From Acipenser ruthenus (lineage: Eukaryota): a stretch of DNA of 64,000 bases. The notes under the pieces were generated by a model, which worked only from the letters and a program-made list of their open reading frames with translations, was not told the origin of the DNA and did not search any database. A program made the translations under genes and the position numbers. This document shows positions 3,189 to 64,000 of this stretch, in pieces; the first letter of the stretch is position 1, and each line of letters begins with the position of its first letter. Location: contig NC_081212.1 in NCBI RefSeq assembly GCF_902713425.1, forward strand, positions 10,036,261 through 10,100,260, written 5' to 3'.

Positions 3189-3222
<34 letters not shown>

Positions 3223-16915: not shown

Positions 16916-17289
16916 TACAAGAATTTAATTGTGTTACACAGTGAGTGGTTACAAGAATTTTTGAAATGGCTTAGCAAACAATTTCAGAGTGCTTTAACCA
17001 ACACGCCGACAACATCTTCATCCCATTGTAAGGAATATGTGCATCTATTTCTTACAATATACACACATAGTTACCGCGGCTCAAAACTCCTAACTAAACT
17101 TCTTTCTTTACAGGCGCAAAGTATCGGCAGGACAGCGATCAGAAACCTTCCCCATCAGGTAAGTTTACTGCTTGTAAAAATCCTTGATATTTCTACCCTG
17201 AAAGGTTTTATACTGCCTTAGCAGAGATGCCAACTGCTACGATTTGGCCGTAGCAGCTACCATGTACTCCTGCTTTCTCATTTCGACAG

Positions 17290-32027: not shown

Positions 32028-33653
<1,626 letters not shown>

Positions 33654-34804: not shown

Positions 34805-34847
34805 TATCCTCCCCCTTAGAATGGCACCACCGGTCCATTCGAAAATC

Positions 34848-36397: not shown

Positions 36398-36459
36398 TAT
36401 GTTTTGTGGGTTTTTTTTTTTTATCTCTGGGTAGGTGCACTGCTTGGGGCAATGCCAGT

Positions 36460-36479
36460 GAATCCCACTTCTGACACCA
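36460..36479 (-). promoter_or_regulatory. Primer-binding site (PBS) complementary to a tRNA-Leu(CAG)-type 3' end (plus strand reads GAATCCCACTTCTGACACCA), 2 nt from the 5' LTR
   Basis: Matches the recalled 3' end of vertebrate tRNA-Leu-CAG (GAATCCCACTCCTGACACCA) with one mismatch. Confidence 0.5.
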
Positions 36480-36481
36480 CG

Positions 36482-37213
36482 TGTGGAAGGGTGGTGGGTA
36501 ATTCACTGACGCAGAGACAGACAGGTGTATTTGGCGTCACCACACAGGTGCCCAGTTTTATTTTTGTTGGGAGCAGGGAGTTGATCTCTTTAGCCCGCAG
36601 ATGGCGCTGTGGGTCCGTGGTCTGCGTACCACCGATGGTAAACAGAGCCACGGAGAATACCAGGAGTCTGGTAAACCAGGGATCGGACAGTAGCACTCGC
36701 AGGTGCCTCAAACAAAACAATGAAAACAAAAGATCAAAGAAAAAGAGAAAATAAAACACAGTAATAAACCTTCAAAGAAAAAGGTGCTGCCCTTGGCAAC
36801 AATATCCCGGTCGCCGCTACCCGCACGACCCGGATCTCCGTCCTACACTACCGGCTCGCTATGCTTGCCTTTTTACTACTGGGGTTCTGCCCAAAGGTAC
36901 CCCGCTCTCCCTAATTCTGTCTATCCGGAGGCTCCTTTCTCTCCGCTGATCCTCGCTCCCGGTCAGCACTTTCCGCACCTCCAGCGCGTCTAAAACGGCA
37001 GACCTGAGGAAACAGCAGAGCATTATCTTATAGGGCCAACAATCTCCCCAAGACCCGCCTCGCAGCCATTCAGAGAGAGAGGGAGAGTCCACACCCACTC
37101 TCCCACCTCCCCGTGTCACGGCTTCTGACAGGCGGTTGTTGGACGACTGCCGCCCCCTCCTGCAGCACTGTGAACACGCCAGCAGAGTCAGTACAGATCT
37201 CTCCCCTGTTACA
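36482..37213 (-). repeat. 5' LTR of gypsy element 1
   Basis: Direct repeat of 34073..34804. Confidence 0.85.
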
Positions 37214-38748: not shown

Positions 38749-40374
38749 CAGTGCCTTGCGAAAGTATTCGGCCCCCTTGAACTTTGCGACCTTTTGCCAC
38801 ATTTCAGGCTTCAAACATAAGATATGAAACTGTAATTTTTTGTGAAGAATCAACAACAAGTGGGACACAATCATGAAGTGGAACGAAATTTATTGGATAT
38901 TTCAAACTTTAACAAATAAAAAACTGAAAAATTGGGCGTGCAAAATTATTCAGCCCCCTTAAGTTAATACTTTGTAGCGCCACCTTTTGCTGCGATTACA
39001 GCTGTAAGTCGCTTGGGGTATGTCTCTATCAGTTTTGCACATCAAGAGACTGAAATTTTTGCCCATTCCTCCTTGCAAAACAGCTCGAGCTCAGTGAGGT
39101 TGGATGGAGAGCATTTGTGAACAGCAGTTTTCAGTTCTTTCCACAGATTCTCGATTGGATTCAGGTCTGGACTTTGACTTGGCCATTCTAACACCTGGAT
39201 ATGTTTATTTGTGAACCATTCCATTGTAGATTTTGCTTTATGTTTTGGATCATTGTCTTGTTGGAAGACAAATCTCCGTCCCAGTCTCAGGTCTTTTGCA
39301 GACTCCATCAGGTTTTCTTCCAGAATGGTCCTGTATTTGGCTCCATCCATCTTCCCATCAATTTTAACCATCTTCCCTGTCCCTGCTGAAGAAAAGCAGG
39401 CCCAAACCATGATGAAACACCACCATGTTTGACAGTGGGGATGGTGTGTTCAGGGTGATGAGCTGTGTTGCTTTTACGCCAAACATAACGTTTTGCATTG
39501 TTGCCAAAAAGTTCGATTTTGGTTTCATCTGACCAGAGCACCTTCTTCCACATGTTTGGTGTGTCTCCCAGGTGGCTTGTGGCAAACTGTAAACGACACT
39601 TTTTATGGATATCTTTAAGAAATGGCTTTCTTCTTGCCACTCTTCCATAAAGGCCAGATTTGTGCAGTATACGACTGATTGTTGTCCTATGGACAGAGTC
39701 TCCCACCTCAGCTGTAGATCTCTGCAGTTCATCCAGAGTGATCATGGGCCTCTTGGCTGCATCTCTGATCAGTCTTCTCCTTGTATGAGCTGAAAGTTTA
39801 GAGGGACGGCCAGGTCTTGGTAGATTTGCAGTGGTCTGATACTCCTTCCATTTCAATATTATCGCTTGCACAGTGCTCCTTGGGATGTTTAAAGCTTGGG
39901 AAATCTTTTTGTATCCAAATCCGGCTTTAAACTTCTCCACAACAGTATCTCGGACCTGCCTGGTGTGTTCCTTGTTCTTCATGATGCTCTCTGCGCTTTA
40001 AACGGACCTCTGAGACTATCACAGTGCAGGTGCATTTATACGGAGACTTGATTACACACAGGTGGATTCTATTTAATCATCATTAGTCATTTAGGTCAAC
40101 ATTGGATCATTCAGAGATCCTCACTGAACTTCTGGAGAGAGTTTGCTGCACTGAAAGTAAAGGGGCTGAATAATTTTGCACGCCCAATTCTTCCGTTTTT
40201 TATTTGTTAAAAAAGTTTGAAATATCCAATAAATTTCGTTCCACTTCATGATTGTGTCCCACTTGTTGTTGATTCTTCACAAAAAATTACAGTTTCATAT
40301 CTTTATGTTTGAAGCCTGAAATGTGGCAAAAGGTCGCAAAGTTCAAGGGGGCCGAATACTTTCGCAAGGCACTG
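38749..40374 (-). mobile_element. Tc1-like DNA transposon (1626 bp) with long IR/DR-type TIRs (CAGTGCCTTGCGAAAGTATTCGGCCCCCTTGAACTTTGCGACC...) and TA TSDs at 38747-38748 and 40375-40376
   Basis: About 100-bp inverted termini; internal transposase. Confidence 0.85.
39042..39982 (-). pseudogene. Tc1 transposase with one frameshift (ORFs 39308..39982 and 39042..39410; [19 protein letters not shown])
   Basis: ORF track. Confidence 0.85.
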
Positions 40375-40639: not shown

Positions 40640-42960
40640 TAAAAGATGGTGAGGGGGGATGGTAACAGAAAGTAAAGATATGTTAAATGTTGCAAAAAGG
40701 TTTTATGAAGAGTTATATATAAAAAGAGAAACAGAAAGATGTGCAGGATTTGTTTTTGAGGAAACTTGAGTGTGAAATAAGGAAGATAATACAGAGATTT
40801 AATACAACTGGGAATTGAAGTGAAAGAGTTTTCTTCATTTGGAAAGGGAAAGGCTCCAGGTTTAGACCGACTTCACATTGAATTTTATCAAACCTTCTGG
40901 GAAGAAAGATGCCAGAAAGATAATTTAATGGAAATGCTCAATGAATGTTTTGAAATGAAAAGGTTAGGGAAATCTGAGAGAAGACCCGATTATTTTTAAA
41001 TAAAATTAAGGGGACAGAAATTATTTGAGAAATTGGAGGCCAACTACCCTGTTAAAATTGTGATTATAAAAATGAACCAAAATAGTAATGGGCAGACTGC
41101 AACAGGTAACAGGAGAATTAATTAATCCGGATCAAGTGTGTGGTGGCCCGGGAAGAACGGTAGTTGATAATTTGAATTTAATAAGAGATACGTGTTTATA
41201 CTCAGAGAGAGAGAGGGCATCCTGTGTGTTTAATTAATATTGATCAAGAGAAAGCATACGACAGGGTAGACCAGGAGTATTTATATAAAGTTTTTGAACG
41301 TATGGGCTTTAATCCAATTTTTATAGACTGGGTTAAAATGCTTTTTCAAGAGGTCAAAGGAAGGGTGGTGGTTAATGGGATGTTGTCACAGTCGTTCCAG
41401 GTGAACTCAGGCGTAAGACAGGGGTGTCCTTTGTCGCCTCTGTTATACATTTTTGCATTAGAACCTGTGCTGACAAAGATAAGGAGATCAAAGCAAATAA
41501 CAGGGGTAATAATCCCAGGTTCAGGGCAGCAAGAAGTAAAGGTACTAGCTTATATGGATGATTTATCTCTGATTTGCAGAGATGATTACTCTGTTAGTAA
41601 AGCTTTGGATATAATGAGGTTATTCGAGAGAGCTTCCGGTTCAAAAATTAATATAGAAAAGAGTCATGCCATGTGTATAGGGGATTGGAAAGAGAAAGAC
41701 AAAATTAAGAAAGAATTAACGGTGGAAGAGGAGGGGATAAAGGGTTTGGGTGTTATGTATGATACAGATATTAATGTTATAAAAGGAACTGGGTGGAAGT
41801 TTCAGGGAAACTTAAGAAAAAAATATTGTATTGGAAGTAGAGAAAATTGACATTAGAAGGGAAATTATCAATTTTAAAAATGATTTTGATGCCTACCCTG
41901 TTATATGTAGCAAGGGTGTTTCCACCTGACTTTGCATCAAGTAGAACAATAACTAGACACCTGTTTAAGTTTCTTTGGGGAGGGGGATTTGAGAAAGTGA
42001 AAAGAGAAACGGTAATGTTACGAAGAAATCGGGGGGGAAAGGTTTTCCAAATGTAATATTATTTATGGCCTCACTTTCTTTGTTACATGATTAAAGCAGT
42101 TTTTGAAATTAAGAAACAGTTTGCTAGGTTTTATTTTGGACAGTTAAGAAAAATGGGCTTAGTAAAACTAACATACAGTGCCCTATGGTGAGAAGATGCC
42201 ATTTGTATATAGGAAGACAATGAATTTTATTGTGCAAAATAATTTGTGTAAAAAGAGGCGGAAGCCAAGTGGACAGCAAAAGAATTAATGAAAAAGACGG
42301 AGTCTGGTGGAAAGCTATGCAGAATAGGTCTTGAGTGATGAGAGATCAGAAATAACATGGGAAAATGTTAACTATTCAGGATTAAATAGACAAAGATATT
42401 GCATGGTTAACAGCGCAGGCAATGCCCTGTAAAAAATTGTTATATAGAAGACAAATGTCAAAGACAAATACATGTGTTAGGACACAGAGTGCATGGCCAT
42501 AGAAACACTTCAGCATGTGTTTTATGAATGTGGGAAAGAGTAAATAAATGGTCACGAAAAATTAGAGATCAAGACATGTGTTAATTTGATATTGTATGGA
42601 CCGAAAAGGAGGGATTCAAAACAAATAATATAAAAAGGATGGATAATTATAAACTGTAAAAGCAGCATTGTGGATTGTGAGAAATCAAGAAATGTACAAA
42701 TCAAAAAATGACAAATGTGAATGAATTTTGTAAAATTGTAAAGATTTGAGATTATGTATGTCTAGACATTAATGCCACTGGGAAATCTACATTACATGGA
42801 AAATGAATTAATTCTGCGATTCATTTTTGTAAGTAGTGAGATAGAAGATACGTGAAAGAGTATTGTTAAAAGATTGTTTGTTATGAATGTGTTTGTTTTG
42901 TTATTGACTATAATTTGATTTAAATTTTTATAATAAACTTTGTAACTGAGGCATGATCCT
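40640..42960 (+). mobile_element. Non-LTR (LINE) retrotransposon remnant: degenerate 5' RT (GKAPGLDRLHIEFY), intact RT core ORF 41224..41850 (FQVNSGVRQGCPLSPLLY; YMDDLSL), thumb (FKFLWGGGFEKVKRETVMLRRNRGG)
   Basis: Motif order is that of an L1/Tx1-like LINE RT. Confidence 0.65.
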
Positions 42961-46929: not shown

Positions 46930-48954
46930 ATGGCTAAGGTACGAAGAAACTACAGTTCGTGCCCACGCATGTTAGAGGCATGTCGCCTTTACCGAGAGGG
47001 TACAGTTAGCAACCTGTCTGCACTGTCCAAGAAATTTGGAGTGGACAGGAAATCCTTGAGGCAGAGAGTGACGAATGACATAAGGGTTGAGGCACATCAG
47101 GGACATAAGACCTACCTCAGTACAGAGACAGAGAGGGAGATTTCAGGCTGTCTTCAGGTAGGATAGCCTATAGTAAGCTAAGTTAAACCATATAGCCTAG
47201 GTAAACAAGAATAGGAGTAAGGCAGTTGTTAGGCAGTGTGTAAGGAAATTAGGCACTAAATACCAATTAGAAATATGAATTGATTAAAGCCCTTGTTTTA
47301 AATTTACCAGTTTTCCCCCTCTATCATTTGTAGGTCCTTTGCCAGTGAGGTTGGGGCTTCACAAAATCAGATCTTTTAGATCTAGTTGAAGAGTATGTGA
47401 AGACTAAGGATATGGAGACCCCATTCACAAATGGGAGACCTGGACGGAAGTGGTTTGAGAGGTTTATGAGAGACCACCCAGAGCTTACAGTGCGAAAGTC
47501 TGAGCAGTTTCCAGAAGCAAGAGCCAAGGCATCTGTTGACTCATCAGTACATGCCCACTGGTTCAACCAAGTGCTTGGAAAGGCAATGGATGACACAAAG
47601 CTGCATGACAAACCACAAAATATATATATAATGTGGATGAAACAGGCTTTGACTGACCCCAGCTCTGAGAAGGTCCTAGCCCCTAAGGGCTTGAAAAATG
47701 TCTACCAAAACACAGGAGGGAGTGGTAGAGAGCAAATCACAGTGTGCATTACTGGGAATGCTGCAGGCCAGAGCCTACCCCCCTATGTAGTGTACAAAGG
47801 AAAAAACCTTTACAGCACCTGGTGTAAGGATGGTCCTGAATCGGCCAGGTATGCGGTGTCTGATCATGGGTGGATGGAGAGAGCACTATTTGAGGACTAC
47901 TTCCAAAACCTCTTCTTGAAAGAATCCTCAAAATGGTCTGACATGAGCTCTCCACGGATCCTCATTTTTGATGGCCACGCCTCCCACATCTCCCTGAGAA
48001 TTGCTGAAATGGCAAAAGAAAACAATGTGGTGCTCCTGCGACTCCCCTCTCACCTCACCCACATTCTGCAACCTTTGGACAAGGCAGTGTTTGGGGAGGT
48101 GAAGAGGCAGTGGAGAAAGAAACTACGATGTCACTCACGAGTCTCCAGGGACAAAATCAGGAAAGAAGATTTTCCTTCGAAGTTGAGTGATGTCTTGGAG
48201 ACAGCTATGAAGTCCGAGAACCTGAAGAGTGGCTTTGGGAGCACCGGGATTTATCCCTTGAACCCTGATCGAGTGAGCAGCGAGGTGACAGAGTTACACA
48301 CCATACACTGAAGTGGCTGCTGGCAATGCTGATTCACTGGAGGATCTTACCATACAACTGCCCCTTCTCAAAGCCATGCCAGCGAGGAGTACACCTGACA
48401 CCTTAGTTGTGTCTCCCCCAGCACAATCATGTTCATTACCCTTGCAGACATCTGCCAATGAGGAATCCATGTCCCAGATCATCCTGAGTGTAGAAACCAT
48501 CCCTGGTTCCAACTTTCTAAACATTACTAACATTGAAGTGGCAAGTCATCCACATGAGCAAATGTCAGCACCCCAGCCATCAACTTCAGCACAGTCAAGC
48601 TCGTCTGCCATTGACAAAGACACCATCAAGGATTTCTTTCTAAAACGAATCACACCACGCAATAAAGAAAACATCAAGAAGCAGAGAATCACAACCCTTA
48701 AATATGGGGAATCGCTGACATCTGCTCAAGCCATGGCCAGGCTTGCTGAGAATAAAAAGAAGAGAATGGCAAGAAATAAGAAAAAACAGGTCAAGAAAGG
48801 AAAGACGACAACACAGAAAAAAGGAGATGCGCCAAAACCAGTTGAACCAACTGAGGATGGCAGCAATGAAGATGCAAAATCACATGGCGATCCCCCCTTC
48901 ACCATCAAAAAAGATGTATACTATGCTGTAATGTTTACATCACCTGCAGCTTAA
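46930..48954 (+). pseudogene. pogo/Tigger-type transposase: psq-type HTH (46930..47160), 213-bp intron-like gap with GT..AG, HTH_Tc5 plus DDE_1 domain (47380..48311; DETG motif shifted to another frame at ~47625; ...ILIFDGHASH...LPSHLTHILQPLD), K/E-rich C-terminus (48313..48954)
   Basis: CENP-B/Tigger-type domain order; frameshift in the atatatata slip region; gap bounded by CAG|gtagga and ttttag|A. Confidence 0.6.
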
Positions 48955-50909
48955 TACATTGGAAGATCCATTAATGAGTCCACACCCCCTGAGGGAGAAA
49001 GATATGTGATGAAGTTTCTTAACAGAGGGCCAGACAACACATATTTTATGCCTCCAAGGGACAAAATTGAAGATGTGGAGAGAAGATTCATACTCTGCAA
49101 GGCAGAACTGGAGGGTGCTGGACCATTCCGCTTGAAGAACCATCATGAGATTGAAAGTCAATACAGAAATATGCTTAAAGCAATGAAATAGAGCAAGTCA
49201 AGATGTAGCCTAGAATGGCAAGTCAATGTTAATAAAAGCTGCCACAAAAGCAGAGATTCTGTAGTGCAAATGATAAAGAATGACTGTATTCTAAATGATA
49301 GATTAACCTTGTTCTTTTTCACTGGTTTGGAATACACTAACATGTTATAAGATGTTGCAAACCTGTGTTTTGTATGATGACCATTTTAAATGTTTTAGGC
49401 CGCTTGCATGATGTATTGAAATTACTTTTATGAATTGATTTTAACAGTTAACACTGTTTTCCTGTGAAGGAAATGTATTCAATAGACTTTTTAATGTTTT
49501 AGACCTATTAATTAAAATAGATTTATTGACAAAAATCATGTAGTGGGCTTATTTGGAACATACATGGGCTTAAATGGTACATCAGGTACCCATTAAGGCC
49601 AGTCGGGACTTTTCACTAATATATCTATTTTTTATTTTGAAAATATAAAAATGGAGTAATATAACTTCACATGAGAGATTAATCTTTCATTTTCTCATCA
49701 CTTCTCTTCCAGAAACCAGTGAATTATATCTTTAAAATGTCTCAACTTAGATTTTGGTGGGCTTAAAAAGGTACACATACCCTAGTCGCCGCTGGCAATT
49801 TTTGACAGTCTCACAGGAGTCTGCTATCATGTAGTTGAAAGAACAGAACAAATGTTGACGCTTTGACATTCTGGGTTTGGTTTTGTATTCTACTGATTGG
49901 GCACAACATTTGAGTTGATCTTTTTACTCTTTATAACATACAAGTGTATTTACAAGGTTAGGGGCCGTTTCTCCTGTTGTGTCAATTATATTACTATGCA
50001 GCTGGCAGGCATTCGGAACGCGCACGCTAACAACGCGTCATCTTTCATTTTACAAAACACGGGGCATTCGACACGGAGAAAACCTTCTAGACAACTACTA
50101 AAAGAGCTAAACATCAATTTGCCTCCCCAGCCATGTTAATAGATATCTGGCTTTTTTCCAGTAGCATTAAAGTTGTGGTGACACACAAAAAAGAAACATG
50201 GAAATCTGTTTTGGGGTTGGGGAGTTAACCTACCAAACAATTTACGCACATGAATATACTGTAACGGAACCTGGTAGGTAGGGAACAGTGGGAAGCACCA
50301 TGAAACAGCTATAATCAAAAAGGGATATCTTTTACTTTTAAAAGTATAAAAATGATCTGGGTAACACAGGCAAAGTGGACAATGGTAGAAAAACAATTAC
50401 AACAACCAACAAAAATGTTTGATCCAGTCAGTTCTCGTAGAACAAGTCAAATTAACTGAAGGCCTAACTGTAATATGGTAAATTACCATACATACAGCAA
50501 TTAACCAAACTTCAATATAAAGTAATCAAATATTACATTTAAAACCAATATGTGCAACTAAAATAAAACTTGTGTTGGTACACAAATTAATATTCAAATC
50601 GTGAGAAAAACCACACATTCAAAAGACAGCACTTCAATGCAAAACGATCACACACACATTAATTATAAACACAAGTTAGATTAATTGCTGTATGGATAAT
50701 TGGCAAAATAGCAACTCAATCACTAGGCACAATTGCAGAGTATCACCTAGCGGAGAGTGGCGTTTTTAATAAGTACCCAGTTTTGGTAGTCAGTTTACAA
50801 ATACAATACTATCAGTAATTCATAAACCATTCAGTGCAAATCAGCAGCAGTAAAAGTTGCATTTAAGCAAGCCCAATTATCAGGCATTTCAGCAGTACAT
50901 TTCAGCATA

Positions 50910-51140
50910 GGAGGCTGTGTGGTCCAGTGGTTAAAGAAAAGGGCTTGGAACCAGGAGGTCCCTGGTTCAAATCCCACCTCAGCTACTGACTCATTGTGTG
51001 AACCTGAGCAAGTCACTTAACCTCCTTGTGCGCCGTCTTTCGGGTGGGACGTAATTGTAAGCGACTCTGCAGCTGATGCATAGCTCACACACCCTAGTCT
51101 CTGTAAGTCGCCTTGGATAAAGGCGTCTGCTAAATAAACA

Positions 51141-51176
<36 letters not shown>
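50910..51176 (+). mobile_element. tRNA-derived SINE (GGAGGCTGTGTGGTCCAGTGGTTAAAG...GGTTCAAATCCCACC...gtcgccttggataaaggcgtctgctaaataa + (AAT)n) inserted in the 3' LTR
   Basis: Absent from the homologous position of the 5' LTR copy (58389/58390). Confidence 0.8.
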
Positions 51177-51181
<5 letters not shown>

Positions 51182-51815
51182 ACCCTGCTTATTTGTTTGA
51201 GAACAATAAATACATTAGGAGGTAGGTAACAGATTCAAATGTCCACAGTTACCAGTTTGCTATTACACATAACCCAGCAAAAAGATAACACAAGGAAAGA
51301 AAACAAATAAAATACAGAAAGAAAACTTCCCTTCAATGACAAGTCCCCCCCCCCCCCCCAAAAGAGTCTCGCACAGCGCACAGTTTGATTCAGTTAGTTT
51401 AGTTACGTTTCAGTTCCGCAGGCAGCGCCGAACCCCGTCAGCGGCCCCTCAGCAGCAACAAAAACCAAACGGGAGTCAAAACCCCCAAAATCAGCTCTCG
51501 TAGTCCATCCTGTACATTGCTTTTATTCAGTTTGTTTCTAATTATTCAACAAGTATGCTGTCATTGGTCATAATGCTCAGTCCAATGTTTCAATCAATGC
51601 ATGACCAAGCCAGCTGCCTCATAACACTTCCCCCTCCTGAAGAGAAAAAAAAGGAAGCGTCCCAACATCCCAATTAAGAAATAACATAATCTTGAGCCCA
51701 CCTAGGTGGTCTCTGTTGACGAGCAGGCAGTACAGGTATGGGAATCCCAATTGGGTTTGTTACCTGTGCAGTCCCGGAGCCGTTGGCTCCTGGTAATGTT
51801 CCAGGTAGCGCAGTA

Positions 51816-53325
51816 CTATGTCCAGCATTGGGTTGTCCAATATTGTCCATAGCAAAGGAATGGGGGGGGGGGTCTTTGGAGTCCAATGCCCAGGTCAGGT
51901 CTAGGAGGATTAGGTAGTCGCATCAGATACTCTTTCCAGAACCTTAAAAAGGGGCCTTTAAACCTTCTTTGAAGTTTCGGACACACTCCTCTTTTCCATG
52001 CTTGTTCTTTCACCCAAACCAACTCACCCACCGAGTAATATTGAGAGGAGGCTTTGAAGTCATAGATCTCCTTTTGATGGCCTGATGCTTTTTCCTGGTG
52101 CCTCTGGACTACTTCTGTAACTGTTTGTAAACCCTCAGCCAATCTAGACACATTCACTGCAGAATTCATACTCTGAGGGTTTCAAATTTAACATGACGTC
52201 AACAGGGAGGGCGATTTCTCTTCCAAATAACTCTATACGGGGTAAATCCAGTACTGGATTGAACACTACTCCTATATGCCTGGATTGAACACTACTCCTA
52301 TATGCCATCATTAAATATGGTAGCAATTCATCCCAGTTCGTTTGGTTGGAGTCTACAAAACAGAGACATCATAGCAGTAAGGGTACGGTTAAATCATTCG
52401 ACAAGCCCATCCGATTGCAGATAAGACGAGGTCCTAGAGTTATTTAATTTCTAACATTTCACCAAACAAATTGGATTCAAAGTTTCTCCCCTGATCTGCA
52501 TGTATAGATCGTGGGGTTCCAAAACAGCAAATAACGTGTTCTACTAGTACCCTAGCCACCGTAATTGCTTCTTGATTGGGGAGTGGAAAAGCTTCTGTCC
52601 ATTTTGAAAAAATTTACTTGTTCCCACTAGTAGTGACAGGAAGAGTGCCTAAAATATCTAAAGCCAAACATTCCATGGGTCTAGAAGTTTTAGAAGTGCA
52701 TAATGGCACACAGGGGGCCTTGCCTGGAGCTTTTCTAGATGCACAATCTAGGCATTCTCTACACCACTTTTTTACATCACCAGACCACCCGGGCCAGAAG
52801 AAACAAGTCCTTATCTTTCCCTGTAGTTTCTCTCTACCAAAATGACCTCCTGTGATATTATGCAGCATCTTAATTAAGTATGGAGGGTTTCAGCAGCCTG
52901 GGGAGAACCACCTGTACATCTGAAATTGAATTTGGATGAGGGGGCGGTACCCTTACCAGCAGCTGTTCTTGAAACTAATTGGTCCCACACACCCCTACAA
53001 ACTTTTTCAGAATGGGGTGGGTCTTCAATTGTTCCAGCGTATCGACCCTTGCTTCCATCTTCCACTGGTGCAGCAGGTTAACATCTGGGTCTTCCTTCTG
53101 GGCTTTTTCAAAGTCCCACTCCTGTTCCATCAATCCAGCTGTTGATGGACGTCCCTCTGCATCCATTATGTTCACTGCAACCACTTCCAGCGAGACAACA
53201 GAGTCCGCGTCCCGGCGCTCCTCTCCTACACCTACAGTAGGGATCCTCAAAACAGCATCTGCGTTCTGGTGCAGTCTTCCTGGTCTGTGTATAAGGCGAT
53301 ACAGGAAAGAGGCGAGGCGTTCCAT
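51816..53325 (-). pseudogene. gypsy integrase region in pieces (HHCC finger and core in 52614..52868; C-terminal GELVWVKEQAWKRG...KLQRRFKGPF in 51816..52169) with a 26-bp tandem duplication at 52248-52300
   Basis: ORF track motifs. Confidence 0.6.
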
Positions 53326-53366
53326 CCACCGTGCAAGCTGTCCTTAGAGTAGAACAAACTCTTTAC

Positions 53367-53760
53367 CTAAAAGGCAATGCTGGAAGTACTGTACAAATGT
53401 GTTATCATTGCCAATAGTTCCTTTATAGTTGTAGCATATTGTTGCTCTTGCTTTGTGAGGGCACGGCTTGCATAGGCAACAACTGGTTCACACCCCTCTT
53501 GCGATAGAACCGCTCCTATTCCAGTATCGCTAGCGTCAGTATCTAAAATGAAGACCTTTTTAGGGTCTGGGTATGCTAAAACCGGGGCAGTCATCAGACT
53601 AGTTAATAGATCAAAAGCTTCCTGGCAGCCATTGTCCCACTTAAATTAGATTTTTTTTCTGTCAAATGGTGTAGAGGGTGGGCGATCATAGCAAAGTCCA
53701 CGATAAACCTCCTATAATAGGAAACCAACCCCACTGTGGCGACCGCCACATAAATGATGT
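53367..53760 (-). pseudogene. gypsy RNase H (FILDTDASDTGIGAVLSQ) and RT-RH tether (GLVSYYRRFIVDFAMIAHPLHHLTEKK)
   Basis: ORF 53367..53594 plus hand translation of 53600-53760. Confidence 0.6.
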
Positions 53761-55147
53761 TAAAAATACATCCTTATCTGTTCTTTAATTAGAATGGATT
53801 AAACCTGGCCAGGTTAAAATAAATTGTTCTTCTCTGCCTTATTTATTAACTTCTCCTGGCTTACTTGTCCAGGCTTGAGGGGGATTTATCAGGGTTCATT
53901 GTATTTATTTTTTCTTGTGAAGGCTCTTCTATTATGCCAGTTGTGGTAATTGTTTTAATTAAAGCCAGCTGGGTTTCATTGATAAAAAGAGAGTATTGTG
54001 GGAAATGGGAGTGTGGCCTGAAAGGAGAGCTGAGCTGTGTTTGCAGGAAGCGTGAAACTGCTAGAGAGTTTGTTGCGGTTTCTTTTTTGCTTTTTAAATT
54101 ATTTAAGCTTATCTAGAAACTATGTAACATTTTTTCTGAAGTAGTACTGAGTTAACTGTCACGAATACAGCTCTGGAATGCTGTTCGTTTTTTATATATA
54201 TGGATGATTTGAAACTGAAGAAAACTGAGATCGATTTGCAACCCAGGAATAACGTGCAGCGGGTCCTCGGACACACGGCAGGAAGGGGTGAGACTGTCTG
54301 TTAGACTTTTCCTTTTTTATGCTGGACAATGTTGGATAACAATTTTTTTTTTTTATAGTATTATGGCCATTTGTTTTGATACTTTATTTTTCTTTGGAAT
54401 ATGTTTTTTGCAAGTTTGATTGGTCTTTAAGCACGATTGACTGTTTTTAGGATTGACTGTCTTGTTTGTCGTTTTTTCTGCAATAAGGAACTTTGTATCT
54501 GCATTAATTTACATGGACTGGGTTTTTTTTGTTAATACTTTTTGATTGTGTTTTAAACTGTTTTGTGTACCGTTCTTACCAGCAATATCCAGGGTTAACA
54601 GGATCATTTTGAGTGGTCTTTGCTGTTTCACTTCCAAAATATTTATAGGGGGAGGCTGTGTGGTCCAGTGGTTAAAGAAAAGAGCTTGTAACCAGGAGGT
54701 CCCCGGTTCAAATCCCACCTCAGTCACTGACTCATTGTGTGACCCTGAGCAAGTCACTTAACCTCCTTGTGCTCCGTCTTTCGGGCGAGACGTAGTTGTA
54801 AGTGGCTCTGCAGCTGATGCATAGTTCACACACCCTAGTCTCTGCGAGTCGCCTTGGATAAAGGCGTCTGCTAAATAAGCAAATAATAATAAATAATATA
54901 TCAGTGTATACACTATGCATTCTATTGTGCTATGAGGTTTCTTTAGATCAGTGTTTAAGGCACATTTTGCTTCCTTTGTATTGACATTGTACTGTTCTAC
55001 AGTTTTTTTCCCACTGTAAAAAGGTTACTGGAGATTAAAACACTCTTACCCACGAACTTTTGGTCCCATTATTCGCTGTCAATCAGTCTTTAATTATCCG
55101 TTTTTTGAAATCAGTTAGTTTTGGCTTGTGTCTTAAAAGTCTGGTTG
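53761..55147. mobile_element. ~1.39-kb insertion between the RT (...EVRSF) and the tether (GLVSYYRRFI), including a second copy of the tRNA-derived SINE at 54648..54899 (plus strand)
   Basis: RT ORF stops exactly at 55148; expected adjacent tether sequence resumes at ~53760; SINE 93 percent similar to 50910..51176. Confidence 0.6.
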
Positions 55148-57452
55148 TTACACCACAAAACTCCTCACCTCAGTTTGATTCTTGGGTATAGGCCACACTC
55201 TTACTGTGTTCACTTTCTTAGGATCTGCTGCAATCCCTTCAGCTGAGATTATATGGCCCAGGTATTTCACTTGCGCAGCAAGCAAATGACACTTAGAAGG
55301 TTTGACCTTTAAGTTCGCCTCCTTCAGCTTATTCAGGACTTCACCCAGATCTGCCCAAGTGTTCTCTAACAGTTTTGCCAAACACGATGGTGTCAGAGAT
55401 AGACCAGGCAAGTCGTCCATTGCAGATCTGCTAGCACCAAGTCCATTAAGCTCTGAAATGTGCTTGGTGCATTACACAAGCCAAAACGGAAGTACATTAA
55501 ACTCATACAGTCCATAGCGGGTCGTAAAAGCTGTCTTGCATTTGTCCTTTGGATCAACTTCAACTTGCCAGTATCCGCTGGCCAGGTCCAGTGTAGAGAA
55601 CCACTTGGCAGAAACTAAAGCATCCAAGGGATCGTCCACTCTTGGTAGGGGGTATGCATCCTTAATGGTTACATCGTTCAGTTTTCTATAGTCCACACAA
55701 AAGCGCAGCCCTCTGTCCTTTGTTCGAACCAGTACGACTGAAGCAGCCCAGGGACTGGTAGTTGTATTAGTCCACTCTCCTGCATTTGTTTTACATGCTA
55801 AACAACCTCTTCCTGAAAATGTAAGGGTACCTTCTGAAATACCATTTTTATTGGTCTGGACTGGCCAGTCTCAATTTGATGGTATGTCTGGTGTGTTCTC
55901 TCCAGGTTGTTGTCACTGCAACTAAACACAGAGATGGTATTCTGGAGAAGTTCCCTGACAGAGAGAAGTTCAGAATGAGACAGTCCCCTTTCATCTAATC
56001 CCAGCTCCCTTATTAGTTCAGAAACAGTCCACGAGCTTCGGCTTACACCATCGGTCTCTTCACTCACATACTCATTAAATTAACTCTTTCCCCAATAGTA
56101 ACATTAGAGACAAAGTTCCCAATAGTAGTACCCTTTCTCAATGTTTGTACTTCATTAGCCAGGTATAGTTCCTTGCTCACGACACAGCACCCGCGCTACC
56201 AGCAAGCCATGTTGATTTGGCAAATTCTGATGGCTCCAGCATCCCCTCTACACCCTCCTGTATCAACTCCTCCACATACCCCTGAATGATTATTTTGGAT
56301 CATGGGGGTATGATTACATCATTCCCCACCACAACAGTTTGATTCTGAAGCACTTTTTGCACAAAATAATGGACATTTTCTGCCAATCAGGGAACACTGT
56401 TTAGTCTTTAGATTAATACTATTTCCATATTTACCAAGAAAATCAGGACCCAACAGCACCTCTTGATGAGCATCATAAGCAACTAAAAAGTCTACAGCTA
56501 AAGCTAGGGAATCTACCTGGCATACAGTTTGCCACAAACCCAGAATTTTCATTATTTCCCCACTCTAACTGTGCCTTTGTATTGAGTAAGGTTTGATTGG
56601 TTTTCCTTTAGTAGCCTGCTCCCACATACCACTAGAGAGGGCAGGGGCTTGAACCACAGTGCCAGCCCATTCTAGTTTTCCTGTACATAGGGACAATCTC
56701 TCCTCAAAATGTCTACTGCAGCCACATTCCCAGCAAACCTGGTTATTCTCACCCTCATAGCTACGGGAATTAGATTGTTCTCTAGGGGGGCCTCTTCCTG
56801 TTATGGGCGATTCCCTGCCCCTATTTGTTTTCTGTTCATGTACAGTACTTTGTAATTGTCTATTTTCTTTATGCAACGACTCGGTTTCCATTCGAGAATT
56901 ATATTGTGCTAAAGTGTTCTTGTTTTACTCAGTTACTCCCTGCACTTTACCATCTACACTACTTGCATTTCCCTGCTCAAGCTCTCTAATCAATTCTAAG
57001 TCAGGAGCCAAATTAATAGCCTCTTCTAGACTAGTATGTTTGGCACTGTGCAGTTGTATACGTACATCTCCACTACCAGCGTGTATGAAAGTGAACTCTC
57101 GCTAGCATATCATGTCCCAGGATGAGCTATAGGGTAAGCTTTAGTGACTAATCTCCTAATAACATTACCACACTCCCTCGCAGATTCTTTTGTTAAATGT
57201 TTCCTAGTTTGAAAAATTCACTCTACTCCAATCTTCACTAGCAGACGGAACCAAGTATCTCCCCATGGCCCCTTTCAAGTTTTTCATAACTGTTACAGCG
57301 GCACCCCCCCATATCCGTGCCCAGCCAGACAGCAATAAAGCCATGAATTTCAATTTCAAATTGTCACTCCACTGATTTGCCTCAGCAGCCATTTCAAATC
57401 GCTCTGCCCAATCAGCCCATTTGCATCCAGACCCAGTAAAGGTTTCTGGCAT
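55148..57452 (-). pseudogene. gypsy gag (57204..57452; zinc knuckle CWECGCSRH in 56565..56891), protease (56319..56552), RT (55472..55696 YPLPRVDDPLDAL...DLASGYWQ; 55148..55420 thumb)
   Basis: ORF track; order gag-PR-RT on minus strand. Confidence 0.65.
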
Positions 57453-57574
57453 AAAAATAAAGGTGCTGCGAACCTTGGTTATTTCTGCTAGAGGATTCTA
57501 TTGCACTACCAGTAGCTTCCATAATAGGTTATATATTAAATTTATCAATAAATAAAATTACAACCCCCCCGCCC

Positions 57575-57595
57575 CCCCCCCCCCGCTTGCCACCA
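57575..57595 (-). promoter_or_regulatory. Possible degenerate tRNA-Leu-type PBS next to the 5' LTR of gypsy element 2 (plus strand ...CCCCCGCTTGCCACCA|g|TGTAACG)
   Basis: Plus strand ends in ...GCCACCA one nt before the LTR; resembles the tRNA-Leu(AAG/TAG) 3' end CCGCTGCCACCA with one extra T. Confidence 0.3.
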
Positions 57596-58865
57596 GTGTA
57601 ACGTAACCTGTCCTGGCTAGGTTGTGCTCTAACTGGATTGAAACAGGAGTAGCGTGTAGCTGCCACCACCTTTGGTTAACTGGGATGGTCCGGATAAATA
57701 ACCCCAGAAGTAGAATGTTATATAGTTATGGTAGCTAGGGAAAAGAGTGAGGCTCCTGGAAACAGCTAGAATCAAAAGGGATATCTTTACTTTTTAAAAA
57801 GGAGTATTTAAAAAAAAAAAAAAAAAAAAAAAAATTATATATACAATATGATCTGGGTATACAACTTAATACAGGCAAAATGGACAATGGTAGAAAAACA
57901 GTTACAACAACCAACAAAATGTTTGATCCAGTCAGTTCTCAGAACAAATCAATTACAATATATTACAGTTAGGCCTTCAGTATAATCATCATACAGCAAT
58001 AAACCAAAGCAATCAAATATTACATTTAAAACCAATATGTGCAACTAAACAAATCGAACTATTAAGTGTTGGTACACAACCAAAATTCAAATCTTAAAAA
58101 AAAACACCATACAATCAAAAGACAACGCTTCAATGCAACACGGTCACACACACTTCAATTATAACAAACACAAATAAGTTAGATTAATTGCTGTATGGAT
58201 AATTAGCAAAACAATAGCAACTCAATCACTAGGCACAATTGCAGAGTATCACCTAGCGGAGAGTGGCATTTAAGAAGTTCCCAGTTTTAGTAGTCAGTTT
58301 ACAAATACAATACTATCAGTAATTCATAAACCATTCAGTGCAAATCAGCAGCAGTAAACGTTTATCAGGAGTTCAGGGCATTTCAGCAGTACTTAACCCT
58401 GGTTATTTGTTTGAGAACAACGATAAATACACGGAGGTAGGTAACAGATTCAAATGTCCACAGTTACCAGTTTCATATTACACGTAACCCAGCAAAAAGA
58501 TACACAAGTGTAGCGCCCCCCTCCAAAACACCATTCGATACTTAACCAAGGATAACCCCCTCGGTTATCCCTAGAATTAAATTGACTACGCCAATTTGAA
58601 GCCAATAACAGGTTCTTTAAAAATCAAGACAGCTCAGTGTGTAAAGTGAGGACAAGGTATAAAAACAACAATAATTTTTTTTACACAGAATCACAGCTTT
58701 TACCTATAGCAGCAGATTTGATAGCAGCAACCTTTAAACTATAGCAGCAGATTTTTAACCAAGAGCGATCCCATCAGACCCTAAGCACTAGGATACTTTA
58801 AGCTAGATAACGTCACACCAACACTTCTAAGTAAAAAGATAACACTATGTAACATAATTTTTGTT

Positions 58866-60168
58866 CCTGGGTAGTAAGTGTTATTTCCTAATTGCTTATG
58901 CCTCAAAAGTATAGAAAATGGCTATTATTCCCCACAAACTTTGCTTTTGTGACCAGGAGTGATATTTTGAAATTTACCTATTTCCAATGAGAAAACGGGC
59001 GGATTTGTGTCTTTTCGTTCACATAAAGTCAGAAAAAAAAACATATGAATCCAAATTAACATGTATTTATACTAAAGTAATACAAAAATGACTACAAAAG
59101 ATTTAGAAGCGAGTAGTTTTTCGAGATTTACGATTATACTGTAAATCACTTTCACGAGTCAGCCCCCAAATGTAGTCTCCCATCATGTTCTCGTTATACT
59201 GTCCTTCACCGACAGCTCATCCAGGAGCCTCAAAGCCGTGCTGCTCCATAATGGTAACAAGTACCCATCTCTTCCCCTGGCTCACTCAGTGCACCTCAAA
59301 GAGGATTACAACAGCATCAAGACCTTGCTGGACGCCTTGAAGTATGAGGAGTACGGCTGGGACCCCGGGAAGGTGCTGATGCCACCACTGCACATCAAAT
59401 TGGGCCTTATGAAACAATTTGTCAGAGCTCTAGATAAGGAGTCGGCAGCCTTCAAGTACCTTCAAGACTTCTTCCCTAAGCTGTCCGAGGCAAAGGTCAA
59501 AGTCGGTGTCTTCGTCGGACCACAGATAAAGAAGATCCTGGCGTGCAATGAATTCCCCAAGAAGCTCACTAGTAAGGAGAAAGCGGTTTGGAACAGCTTT
59601 GTCGCAGTGGTTCGGGGCTTCCTGGGCAATCACAAGGCCGAAAACTATGTGGAGCTGGTTGAGACTCTGGTGAAGAACTACGGCACAATGGGCTGTAGGA
59701 TGTCCCTCAAAGTCCATATCCTTGATGCTCATCTTGATAAATTCAAGGAGAACATGGGAGCGTACTCGGAGGAGCAAGGCGAGCACTTCCACCAGGATAT
59801 ACTGGACTTTGAACGCCGCTACCAAGGACAGTATAATGAGAACATGATGGGAGACTACATTTGGGGGCTGATTCGTGAAAGTGATTTACAGTATAATCGT
59901 AAATCTCGAAAAACTACTCGCTTCTAAATCTTTTGTAGTCATTTTTGTATTACTTTAGTATAAATACATGTTAATTTGGATTCATATGTTGTTTTTTTCT
60001 GACTTTATGTGAACGAAAAGACACAAATTCGCCCGTTTTCTCATTGGAAATAGGTAAATTTCAAAATATCACTGTCCTGGTCACAAAAGCAAAGTTTGTG
60101 GGGAATAATAGCCATTTTCTATACTTTTGAGGCATAAGCAATTAGGAAATAACACTTACTACCCAGGA
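58866..60168. repeat. Large palindrome: ~350-bp inverted arms (58866-59215 is the reverse complement of 59820-60168) around ORF 59238..59927
   Basis: Near-perfect inverted match read directly; one arm contains the 3' coding end of the ORF. Confidence 0.8.
59238..59927 (+). pseudogene. C-terminal portion of a hAT (Charlie/Buster-like; ZBED5/FAM200/GTF2IRD2-like) transposase: ...LHIKLGLMKQFVRALDK...VGVFVGPQIKKIL...FLGNHKAENYVELVETLVKNY...SLKVHILDAHLDKFKENMGAYSEEQGEHFHQDILDFERRYQGQYNENMMGDYIWGL
   Basis: Motifs recalled from the hAT-Buster/Charlie C-terminal region; no N-terminal BED or DDE part present. Confidence 0.5.
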
Positions 60169-61234
60169 ACCAAAAAAAAAAAAAAGTGTTACACAGTGTA
60201 ATAATTCACAGCGCAATAACACTTAAATAACACCCTTCAAAGCAAATAGTGATTTCCACAAACACAATTCCAAACAATAAAATATCAAACCTTAAATAAC
60301 ACACTTTAAAAAAACTAATAATCAGTGATTTTCATAGAAAAACAGAAAACTTCATGCAACCTAAAAAATGCCTAATGCTTAAACCCTCCAATAGCCGCTA
60401 TTTTAGTTAATACACAGGTGGATAAAGTGCAAGTGTGCAATCAAAAGTTAACAGGCCTTTTATAACTATACATTGTAAACACATACACAATTACAGTTAG
60501 GATAATCAGGACAAAGACGCTACTCAGTCTAAACCAACCAATAACACAGAAAAGAAGTTCGTATGCAGCGCTCAAATATTACATCAGCATTCACAGGATC
60601 GTAATTACCAACTCAGAATACAGACAATGCACATTCTCTTTTTTAATCAACCCCATACAATTGCGACCGACGTCTAAGAGCACGGGGGATACTTCACTGA
60701 AACCACTCCAATATAGAGCGGACCAAACTATTCAATATGAATAGTAGTAGTTTACCATTAACTTCCAGCGCTTTAGCCAATTCACAGCGCCCCAGTATTA
60801 CTCTACAAAAGTTACAATCCTTACCAAACAGTAGTTCCCCGACCCGTGCTCTCAGCTCACAAATCTCTCAAACCCGGTCGCTCCCTGGCTGATTAACCCC
60901 ACCTGTTTTTATACAGCTGGCCCCATTACGAATTAGCACTGCAATTACTATGGAGACCAGTAGTCTCCCTGGGGTTTAAAGGGACAGTGCAACGGTAAAA
61001 ATGATAAATAAAAAAAATAAAAAATCACACAATAAAACTCACTTATTACATTCAAAAAATAAACAATACTTCCATTGCAGATCCGTTACACAAGCAAAAT
61101 ACAATAAAATAATAAATAAAATACAGAAAAAAAACTTCCCTTCAATGACAAGTCCAACCCAGCGCGCAGTTCGATGCAATTCGGTTAAATTCAACAGGCA
61201 GCACCGAACGCTGTCAGCGAATCCTCAGCAGCAA

Positions 61235-63108
61235 CCAGTGGCGACTCATGTGGCTTGAAAAACTGGTGGGGCACAGCCCACCCCCGCACCCCCCCCCCCC
61301 CAAAAAAAAAACTGTGCTCAAACCCGGATGCCCGATTTTAACCATTTTTATGTAAACATTAAGCTAGCTTTCTAACATTACCAGATCTTTCATCACAAAC
61401 AGTTTTACACCCGATTGTCACAATCTGTAAACAATACTTTACAGGCAAGGGTCTCTTATCGACAGACAGCTGCACCTGCACTAACCTGAGCGTTTGAAAT
61501 AGAAGAATCGTCACAATCTCGTGCTGTTAATAACATACAGAAGTCAGGTTTGGTTTCTGTTGATGTCTCTGGCGTTGGTGGTTTAGCTTTTTTGTTGTAG
61601 AAAAACTCCAAACGTAGCTGTTTTTTTGCCATTTTAACAGGGCTCAAATTCACTCAGTTTTTAGCACATGTTTTCGCTGACTGAAAAAGTGAACGTCTCA
61701 CACGAGAACAAGTATAACGGTGAAGGCTTGACACGCTTTGGTTATGTTATTAAGTTTTGAAAGTTTGAAATAAACTGCGCACTTACGTATTTTTAAATAA
61801 TAAACTCTGGCATCAGAGTCACAGTGGTGCAATTGGCAACCTGATTTCTTATTCATGCACTGACATTTTATTTTCGAAAAATAAAGAACAATCTTTTTTT
61901 TTTTAAGAGAAGATCCAATAACCAAATACACTGTTGTGGAAAAAAAAAAAAAAAATCAGTTTCCGATTAAAAACAAAAAAGGAAATAGAAAGCAAAGGAC
62001 TTGAACTTTTAACATGCGCATCAGATTTCAATTTCACATTATGATAATAAATAAAAATAACTAAATATAATTTTATTTGTACGTATGGTTGTTCATTTTT
62101 GTTAACTAACAGTTGGTGTTCAAAGCAAACCATTTTATTTAATCTCACAAATCCTGACTAATTTATTACCGTTTGACTGACGCAGGACTGTCTGTGGTAC
62201 CTAATCTTCTGGAGGTTCGGGGGAGGGGGTACTTGTGCACACAGTTGCATTAACTACATTGTAAAAAATGTACTAACAACTGATCCAACGAAAAACTTTG
62301 GTTGATTGACAGCAAATCCAGCTACTCGTTTTTATGGTATCGCACTGCACTGACATTCGCTAGCCTATCGGGCTTTGTTGAGCTGATGGACACGCTGTAG
62401 CCTAAACAAATAATCAGAATGAAAACGAATAGGTAACCGAACTCAGGAATTGAAACAGTTTTGACGTTTCTCTCTTAGCAGCGTCCAGAACTGTTTTCAT
62501 TCTAATTTATTTCTTTAGTTATTCAATTAATAATAGGTTGTACATTTACTACTCCATCTCCAAGACCTTGATAGACTTGGTTACCGTGCCTTGATGAAGC
62601 TGGCTGCTCAATCCGTGAAAAATGATAATTTTATTGGTAGGCTGGCCGCTGGAGAGGTCAGCTGGCAGTAAGATATGTCGAGAGGCGAGTGCATTCTACG
62701 TAAATACATAGGTTACTATTACATAGTAAATGTTCTCTACCCCATCTATGTGTGTAGTAGTAGCTAGGATACACAGCCTATACAGTAATCATAGCCTATA
62801 TGTTTCATGCATCTGTGTTTGGGGTTGAGCAAGTACAGCTTGCTTATGTATTCTCATTGGTTGATAGCAACGCGGTAAATAAAAAGTTCGCTCCGTGAGC
62901 GAAAAGAAAAATCAGCGCCGGCCGTGCCGCGTCCGCCCCGCGTCCTGTGTTAACACACAGGTAGACTATAATGGGAAGCTTTTCCCATTTCTTTATTTCT
63001 TATACAGGTTTCAGTGTGAACGATCCTAACGCAGTGGCTAAACCACTGCCTGGCAGAAATCTGGGGGGGGCACGTGACCAGGCGTGCCCCCCCCACGCGT
63101 CGCCACTG
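61235..63108. mobile_element. Non-autonomous hAT-like element (1874 bp) with TIRs CAGTGGCGAC / GTCGCCACTG and a perfect 8-bp TSD GCAGCAAC (61227-61234 and 63109-63116), inserted in the 5' LTR of gypsy element 2
   Basis: LTR copy 1 reads ...CAGCAGCAACAAAAACC... continuously at the homologous site. Confidence 0.8.
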
Positions 63109-63638
63109 GCAGCAACTAAAACCAAACGGGAGTGAAAACACAAAAATCAGCTTTCATAATCCATCCTCTACATTGCTTTTATCCAGTTTGTTTCCAATTA
63201 TTCAATAACAATGCCGTCATTGATCGTAATGCTCAGTCCAATTAAGGTTCCCAATGTTTCAATCAATGCGTGACTGAGCCGGCTGGCACGTCACAATATC
63301 ATGCAAATTATGTAACTACTTTTCAAAGGCAGTTCTAGTATTCAGACTGTAGTTGCAAAAATAATACAATATCTTTTGACTAGAGTTCATCTTTTAAAAA
63401 CAACTACTTTGCCAACAGAAGAAAAAAAGGCTAACAGAAGACGGTTTCGCTCCGTCGACCTCTGGGTTATAAGGCTCAGCACGCTTCCGCTGCGCCACTC
63501 TGATACAGCTTTTTCTTAAATGAAATACCCATCAATAAAATAAAATAAAATAAATCAATTCTCAGTGCAACTTTTTGACGCAGTCTGCTGCTGGACTCAC
63601 AGAGAGCGGAGACCGCAACAAAAAAATGAACAAGCACA

Positions 63639-63711
63639 TGTTTCCACCCGGTTTCGAACCGGGGACCGTTCGCGTGTTAGGCGAACGTGATAACCACTAC
63701 ACTATGGAAAC
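63639..63711 (-). tRNA. tRNA-Val (anticodon AAC), 73 nt
   Basis: Minus strand reads GTTTCCATAGTGTAGTGGTTATCACGTTCGCCTAACACGCGAACGGTCCCCGGTTCGAAACCGGGTGGAAACA; 7-bp acceptor stem; T7 terminator ~16 nt downstream. Confidence 0.9.
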
Positions 63712-63841
63712 TTTCACATGTACATTGTTACATTCAGCTGGGCTTTAAGTGAAGACTGCCTTACACTGCAGGATCCAAAATGGGTAATCGGCACTGTATG
63801 CTTAGAGCGCAACACACGACTCGTTTATTATTAAGCAACAT

Positions 63842-63914
63842 GTTTCCATAGTGTAGTGGTTATCACGTTCGCCTCACACGCGAAAGGTCCCCGGTTCGAA
63901 ACCGGGTGGAAACA
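63842..63914 (+). tRNA. tRNA-Val (anticodon CAC), 73 nt
   Basis: GTTTCCATAGTGTAGTGGTTATCACGTTCGCCTCACACGCGAAAGGTCCCCGGTTCGAAACCGGGTGGAAACA; T7 run at 63934-63940. Confidence 0.9.
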
Positions 63915-63933
63915 CAGCACGGCATATTTTTTT

Positions 63934-63940
63934 CACTGTA
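63934..63940 (+). terminator. Pol III terminator (TTTTTTT) for the tRNA-Val(CAC) gene
   Basis: T7 run 20 nt downstream of the tRNA 3' end. Confidence 0.7.
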
Positions 63941-64000
63941 TGTATTTATTCTCCCCAGGTAAACAGCCACCCAGACCAGAACGATGTATTTGTAGTGTGC

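Follow-up and report, generated by a model that had tools for sequence, protein, structure and literature searches.

How did a 13-kb block of repeats in a sturgeon genome come to hold several transposable elements (TEs) one inside another, and can the order of their arrival be read from the DNA? The block occupies positions 50260-63295 of the stretch analyzed here, 64,000 nucleotides from Acipenser ruthenus (contig NC_081212.1, positions 10,036,261 to 10,100,260 of the forward strand), which is called the window and is numbered from its first letter. An original prediction made from the letters alone described the block as a Ty3/gypsy element of about 13 kb with at least four nested insertions, a local insertion hotspot and a datable order of events. 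By its sequence, the host element at 50260-63295 (minus strand, 13036 bp) is a degenerate Ty3/gypsy long terminal repeat (LTR) retrotransposon with gag, protease (PR), reverse transcriptase (RT), RNase H and integrase (IN) in gypsy order, and LTRs, a primer-binding site (PBS) and a polypurine tract (PPT) are all present; the element class is the one predicted. An old, dead gypsy element that received later insertions, two of which collapsed to solo LTRs that each carry a guest, is in our judgment a highly probable account of the locus as a whole.

The LTRs were compared by a repeat scan and by gapped BLASTN of positions 49800-52000 against 57000-64000, and the junctions were read directly. Both LTRs start with TGTAACG (at 50260 and 57597) and end with ACA (at 51626 and 63295). 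The 3' LTR (50260-51626, minus strand, plus-strand ends TGTAACGG...CATAACA) is 1087 bp long without the short interspersed element (SINE) that it holds. Its start is the one predicted, and its end lies 10 nt short of the predicted 51636. The 5' LTR (57597-63295, minus strand) is 1232 bp long without its two insertions, a figure that includes a 120-bp segment described below. BLASTN aligned the two LTRs in seven colinear blocks, the first starting at 50272/57729 and the last reaching 51616/63285, at E-values as low as 1e-124. Blocks 1-3 pair 50272-50343 with 57729-57799, 50362-50858 with 57867-58362, and 51176-51294 with 58390-58508; blocks 4 and 5 pair 51302-51346 with 61111-61155 and 51419-51459 with 61195-61235; blocks 6 and 7 pair 51452-51586 with 63109-63242 and 51582-51616 with 63251-63285. 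Large gaps separate blocks three times on the upstream-coordinate side and once on the opposite side. With the insertions removed, the alignment covers 976 positions at 88.7% identity with about 27 indels, and the Kimura two-parameter (K2P) distance is 0.12. The piecewise alignment of the two LTR copies that the prediction relied on is thus real.

Two smaller differences between the LTRs were recorded. The 120-bp segment (57609-57728), near the U5 end, is present in the 5' LTR only; similar short motifs border it (TGGCTAGG and TGGTAGCTAGGG), so insertion and microhomology deletion from the 3' LTR are equally likely. A 27-bp micro-inversion (50451-50476 versus 57960-57986) places CTGAAGGCCTAACTGTAATAT opposite its own reverse complement.

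The internal region (51627-57596, minus strand) is 4548 bp long without its insertion and carries many stops and frameshifts. The PPT (AGGAGGGGGAAG, 51627-51638, minus strand) directly adjoins the 3' LTR, and the PBS-like TGGTGGCAAGCG (57584-57595, minus strand) follows the 5' LTR after one spacer base (57596); both were read directly. The PBS may correspond to a Leu-AAG/UAG-like tRNA. Immediately downstream of the PBS stands a stretch of about 20 C, which read as G on the element strand (57564-57584). Pfam searches of stop-free segments gave, in order along the minus strand, RVT_1, RT_RNaseH_2, Integrase_H2C2 and rve. The RT remnant extends over 55870-55154 (RVT_1 match at 55870-55151), RNase H over 53734-53370 (RT_RNaseH_2/RT_RNaseH match at 53645-53370), the integrase zinc domain over 52889-52617 (Integrase_H2C2) and the integrase core over 52613-52443 (rve). 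Integrase after RT is the Ty3/gypsy arrangement, unlike Ty1/copia. Upstream of RT on the same strand lie a gag-like open reading frame (ORF; 57452-57204), accompanied by a degenerate CX2CX4H zinc knuckle near 56700, and a protease-like stretch (LLGPDFL, 56564-56322), both without a Pfam score.

A stitched RT-RNase H query matched thousands of RT-RNase H proteins, the best at 74-75% identity, and some of the best matches inspected are automatically named after the gypsy-group transposons 297 and 17.6. The TGT...ACA LTR ends, the PBS and PPT, the PR-RT-RNase H-IN order and the RT_RNaseH_2 and Integrase_H2C2 domains are shared with animal Ty3/gypsy elements (Metaviridae; "Pol polyprotein from transposon 297 / 17.6"), and the host flanks are compatible with a target site duplication (TSD) of 4 bp in an ATAT-like target. 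The window copy differs from these elements in being dead, as its repeated reading-frame changes and frequent stops indicate, and in that its identity to the closest proteins in the databases is only about 75%. A related gypsy element was found on a metagenome scaffold (L002). Between its gag and RT, an ORF at 1818-2873 gives weak aspartyl-protease matches and a dUTPase match just under the Pfam cut-off (E 2e-4), and the pattern IPP.S...G.LEPS is common to this ORF and to window positions around 56300-55900.

The two LTRs could instead come from different insertions of one family, which would make the element a recombinant or chimera. The 4-mers that flank it differ (ATAC at 50256-50259, the putative left half of the host TSD, read directly, and ATAT at 63296-63299), and the LTRs are 11% diverged, with the indels counted above as well as the 120-bp indel and the 27-bp micro-inversion. 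A three-out-of-four match between the flanks is the expectation for an old TSD at 12% divergence, and between the LTRs lies one colinear gag-pol, with the PBS and PPT correctly adjoining the LTRs. We regard a chimera as extremely improbable. For one element with two original LTRs, the K2P distance of 0.12 would correspond, very roughly, to an age of 24-61 million years (My) at 2.5-1 x 10^-9 substitutions per site per year. The sturgeon duplication has a Ks of 0.132 and is dated to 210.7 My (PMC11425059), and our arithmetic with this slow rate would give about 2 x 10^8 years.

Four insertions interrupt the host directly. The first is SINE copy 1, 280 extra bases at 50898-51177 (plus strand) in the 3' LTR only, with the SINE proper at 50910-51177 (predicted 50910-51176). 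The 5' LTR shows the empty site, read directly as ...CATTTCAGCAGTA|CTTAACCC... The second is a 2.6-kb unit in the 5' LTR at 58509-61090 (predicted 58511-61103), flanked by the 4-bp TSD CAAG at 58505-58508 and 61091-61094; the empty site in the 3' LTR reads GATAACACAAG|GAAAG. The third, also in the 5' LTR, is a hAT-like element at 61236-63108 (predicted 61235-63108) with a perfect 8-bp TSD, GCAGCAAC, at 61228-61235 and 63109-63116. At the paralogous site of the 3' LTR, which is empty, this 8-mer stands once.

The fourth insertion lies in pol at 53735-55152 (predicted 53761-55147) and is flanked by the 4-bp TSD CCAC at 53731-53734 and 55153-55156. It splits pol exactly where the codons for RSFV give way to those for GLVSYYRRF, and the proteins of relatives read NQTEVRSFVGLASYYRRF unbroken where the window has 1.4 kb extra. 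In a tblastn alignment across the break, residue 212 ends at 55154 and the match resumes with residue 212 at 53734; the related element on the metagenome scaffold is colinear with the host at the DNA level across the same point. Each of the four predicted insertions is therefore real, with boundaries that had been off by 1-26 bp.

In each of the four cases the paralogous LTR lacks the insertion or pol is split by it, so all postdate the host. Insertions present in both LTR copies had been named in advance as the pattern that would contradict the nesting, and each insertion was found in one LTR only or interrupting pol. The count of at least four holds for these primary events. The total is six, because each of the two large units holds one guest: SINE copy 2 (54651-54901, plus strand) lies in the pol insertion, where a second member of the same SINE family had been predicted, and a Chapaev3-type DNA transposon lies in the 2.6-kb unit. 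The predicted datable order goes too far: it holds only in the weak sense that the primary insertions follow the host, and among the four themselves no order emerges. The inner guests may have sat in their carriers before the carriers arrived.

The boundaries of the two large units are set by references outside the units, the paralogous LTR for the 2.6-kb unit and the reading frame for the pol unit. At these independently fixed boundaries both units have TGT...ACA ends and perfect 4-bp TSDs. Taken in the plus orientation, which is assigned from the termini only, the pol unit reads TGTGGCG...GTTGTTACA and is about 1.16 kb long without its SINE, and the 2.6-kb unit reads TGTAGCG...CCGTTACA and is 1223 bp (about 1.22 kb) long without its guest. 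In one orientation both end with GTTACA, as does the host LTR (...CCGTTACA versus ...ACGTTACA), and both match the host LTR in size (1.09-1.23 kb). Self-comparison found no internal direct repeats, so the units are not small complete LTR elements. Stop-free segments of the pol insertion gave no Pfam match, and no other copy of either unit was found in the window, in an Acipenser sinensis contig (L001) or on the metagenome scaffold. Judged from their termini, TSDs and sizes, solo LTRs from two further, related families of the gypsy type are the most probable identity of the units. An 8-bp TSD, TACACAAG, of the hAT kind was also tried for the 2.6-kb insertion and rejected; it leaves ends of TGTAGCG... 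and ...GATCCGT without terminal inverted repeats (TIRs), and the 4-bp reading gives TGT...ACA.

Non-autonomous DNA transposons with a 4-bp TSD and TGT termini, for example Ginger-like, or an unclassified repeat could also produce two such 1.2-kb units. Short imperfect TIRs are present (7 of 10 positions in the pol unit, TGTGGCGACC versus TGTAACAACC, and 6 of 10 in the 2.6-kb unit), no full-length parent of either unit appeared in the window, on the Acipenser sinensis contig or on the metagenome scaffold, and homology is absent both between the two units and between either of them and the host LTR. These TIRs stop at about 10 nt, the asymmetric ...GTTACA end fits the 3' end of the host gypsy LTR in one orientation only, and the unit sizes match that LTR. 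Solo LTRs are also by far the commonest source of units of this kind, which counts against DNA transposons. We consider the transposon or unclassified-repeat origin unlikely and retain the two units as probable solo LTRs.

The guest in the 2.6-kb unit is a Chapaev3-type (CMC) DNA transposon at 58843-60198 (plus strand, 1356 bp). It has inverted repeats of about 360 nt that are 98% identical and termini CACTATG...CACAGTG, and it is flanked by the TSD TAA (58840-58842 and 60199-60201) inserted between A and T (A|TAA...TAA|T, 58839-58842/60199-60202). A 229-aa ORF at 59238-59927 is a transposase remnant that lacks about 70 aa and has no exon 1. It matched no Pfam domain. Many "uncharacterized" Acipenser ruthenus proteins match the ORF at 95-96% identity and lamprey proteins match it at about 86%, and further matches come from piranha, a tunicate, frogs and flies. 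It contains the LH (PPLHIKLG) and H(4)H (HILDAH) motifs; the C(2)C motif (PCYLCLWD) is present in full-length relatives and deleted in the window ORF.

Chapaev3 elements are distinguished by CAC...GTG termini, by insertion between A and T with a TWA TSD, and by the motifs C(2)C, LH and H(4)H (PMC4079192). For one Chapaev3 family, Merrow, horizontal sharing among lampreys, paddlefish and sturgeon has been reported (Zhang et al. 2014, PMC4079192). The termini, the TSD and the motifs of the relatives match these hallmarks and identify 58843-60198 as an internally deleted Chapaev3-type element. The CAC...GTG ends and the TAA (TWA) TSD between A and T are common to the window copy and to Chapaev3/Merrow, as is a protein distribution with the best matches in Acipenser and lamprey and patchy matches out to insects and tunicates. 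The window copy differs from full-length Chapaev3 in its internal deletion, and it is assigned at the Chapaev3-type level, not to Merrow itself.

Two other interpretations of this guest were rejected. The inverted repeats of some 350 nt had suggested a retro-copied gene, with a poly(A) tail, that had been rearranged into a palindrome. This is ruled out by the independent copy on the Acipenser sinensis contig, which is 97.6% identical, stops being homologous at the identical CAC...GTG termini and has TWA flanks. The ORF had also looked like a novel uncharacterized protein family, with no Pfam match and a patchy spread over lamprey, sturgeon and insects; this pattern is the horizontal transfer of Chapaev3 already described (PMC4079192).

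The hAT-like element at 61236-63108 (no strand assigned) had been predicted as a 1.9-kb hAT element with a TSD; the TSD holds, and the element is hAT-like. Its TIR, CAGTGGCGAC, matches at 10 of 10 positions and begins with CAGTG. The starts of hAT TIRs follow the YARNG rule. The 8-bp TSD and the short TIR beginning with CAGTG are common to the window element and to non-autonomous hAT elements. The element has no coding capacity; a search of stop-free segments of at least 50 aa gave no Pfam match, the hAT transposase included, so this copy differs from hAT elements in having no transposase remnant. The lack of transposase is compatible with a non-autonomous hAT member and is not positive proof of one. 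No second copy was found in the window.

SINE copies 1 and 2 are 93% identical over 248 nt, which bears out the prediction of one family. Both carry an L2/UnaL2-type 3' stem-loop, at 51090-51143 in copy 1 and 54831-54884 in copy 2, and both end in (AAT)n-type repeats. The Rfam UnaL2 3' element is matched over its full length (1-54) with 51.4 bits (E 2.4e-8) in copy 1 and 42 bits (E 7.9e-6) in copy 2, both below the gathering score of 55. The stem-loop matches and the tails together suggest mobilization by an L2-clade long interspersed element (LINE). The eel UnaSINE1, whose partner LINE is UnaL2 (Rfam RF00436), has in common with the window SINE an A/B-box-like head, the 3' stem-loop GUAAGUCGCCUUGGAUAAAGGCGUCUGCUAAAU and a short-repeat tail. 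The window SINE differs from it in UnaL2 scores (51 and 42 bits) under the gathering score, a silent tRNA model and the lack of a clean TSD. The central CAAGTCACTTAACCTC resembles the CORE/MIR domain.

The label "tRNA-derived" had been given to this SINE in the original prediction. In its favor, an A-box-like TGGTCCAGTGG and a B-box-like GGTTCAAATCC stand in the head at tRNA-like spacing (read by eye). When the B-box region was aligned to the window tRNA-Val, the score was reached by 1-13 of 500 shuffles. The Rfam tRNA model gave the head no score, and the label is weakly supported by the sequence. At the 5' junction of copy 1 (50885-50909), a 12-nt near-copy, CATTTCAGCATA (50898-50909), follows the preceding 13-nt target CATTTCAGCAGTA. 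Both halves of this duplication are on one side, which is not the usual TSD geometry. No repeat flanks copy 2.

A succession of events that would produce this arrangement can be proposed. The Ty3/gypsy element would, long ago, have inserted in minus-strand orientation into the DNA that separates a U7-like small nuclear RNA (snRNA) sequence from a small tRNA cluster. It would then have decayed, with stops and frameshifts building up and its LTRs diverging by about 12%, and at least four independent insertions would later have struck what was neutral DNA. The L2-tailed SINE would have entered the 3' LTR through the RT of an L2-clade LINE, and cut-and-paste transposition with an 8-bp TSD would have brought the non-autonomous hAT-like element into the 5' LTR. 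Pol and the 5' LTR would each have received one further LTR retrotransposon, and we infer that LTR-LTR recombination later reduced both to solo LTRs. Each solo LTR would carry one further element, SINE copy 2 in one case and the internally deleted Chapaev3-type transposon in the other.

Several observations weigh against this account. The host TSD is imperfect (ATAC versus ATAT), and the Pfam search of the host element found no chromodomain and no recognizable gag domain. The host LTR and the two units share no internal homology by sensitive BLASTN, a comparison that also included the hAT-like element and gave low-complexity matches only. Since no full-length parent was retrieved and no homology is shared, the solo-LTR assignment draws on termini, TSD length and size. 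The Rfam tRNA model has no match on the SINE head at E-values up to 10. No TSD flanks SINE copy 1, and no repeat follows its tail.

The original prediction also called the locus a local insertion hotspot. A true hotspot, created by chromatin state, by the proximity of RNA polymerase III (Pol III) genes or by self-targeting of integrase, would agree with six elements of four classes in 6.9 kb of original sequence, with the presence, among the units, of three gypsy-type LTR sequences whose termini are similar, and with the tRNA genes and U7-like sequence less than 150 bp from the element ends. Against this, inserted DNA makes up 6169 of the 13036 bp of the present element, or 47%, which is close to the genome-wide TE share of 45.3% in Acipenser sinensis (PMC11425059). 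The window is just as TE-rich elsewhere (gypsy, Tc1, pogo-like and other RT remnants), the guests use four unrelated integration mechanisms, and the age of the host (K2P 0.12) left ample time for insertions. The placement of the host is also unlike Ty3-type targeting, since its LTR ends 137 bp downstream of the nearest tRNA-like sequence and not at a Pol III start site. The hotspot claim has no support, and we consider a true hotspot very unlikely; an old dead element that gathers insertions neutrally is explanation enough, with no sign of targeting.

The pile-up of three gypsy-type LTRs that end in ...GTTACA could in addition be read as directed integration of such elements into their own kind, into heterochromatin or near small-RNA genes. 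To our knowledge, directed integration of that sort is not established for vertebrate gypsy elements, and we give it hardly any credence here. From a single case no inference on tRNA or U7 proximity is possible, and we keep to neutral accumulation.

All components are of known kinds (a gypsy element, probable solo LTRs, an L2-tailed SINE, a hAT-type non-autonomous element and Chapaev3), and the finding is ordinary. It has little import beyond annotation and points to neither a new mechanism nor a new class of element. The locus illustrates cleanly how transposons nest in a fish genome that is rich in repeats and evolves slowly, with the paralogous LTR acting as a built-in empty site for insertions. 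As presence/absence markers, the insertions could be used in acipenseriform phylogeny, or in dating against the whole-genome duplication of sturgeons, and the Chapaev3-type guest adds one more genomic copy to a horizontally transferred family already reported in sturgeons.

Small-RNA sequences lie on both sides of the host element. The U7 snRNA-like sequence (50060-50116, minus strand) is 144 bp from the end of the 3' LTR and scores 35.6 bits in Rfam against a cut-off of 34. It has an intact histone-binding CUCUUU, a near-consensus Sm-like site, AGUUGUCUAG, and a terminal hairpin. On the other side, the tRNA cluster (63432-63914) starts 137 bp beyond the 5' LTR with an initiator-Met-like pseudogene (63432-63504, minus strand, 33.6 bits) whose anticodon loop is disrupted. 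A tRNA-Val(AAC) (63639-63711, minus strand) and a tRNA-Val(CAC) (63842-63914, plus strand) follow as a divergent pair that forms a 97% inverted repeat.

Further repeats are found in the rest of the window. Two 300-nt direct repeats that are 100% identical (34073-34372 and 36482-36781) flank a GC-rich 2.1 kb with an intact-looking gypsy RT/RNase H ORF (376 aa) and a SCAN-domain gag-like ORF; a truncated LTR element of young age could account for the whole (34073-36781), as could a duplication or an assembly artifact. A Tc1/Sleeping-Beauty-like transposon (38819-40303) has 105-nt inverted repeats (94%) and an ORF with HTH_SB and HTH_Tnp_Tc3_2 domains. More TE remnants at 27305-27796, 32821-33438, 41224-41850 and 47397-48311 comprise two DDE_3 ORFs, one RVT_1 ORF and one DDE_1 (pogo-like) ORF. 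An 89-bp tandem repeat is present in three copies of 89-99% identity at 16658-16924, and, in keeping with an acipenseriform source of the window, another interspersed repeat with an (AAT)n-type tail at 3210-3452 is 90% identical to positions 6469-6700 of the Acipenser sinensis contig L001.

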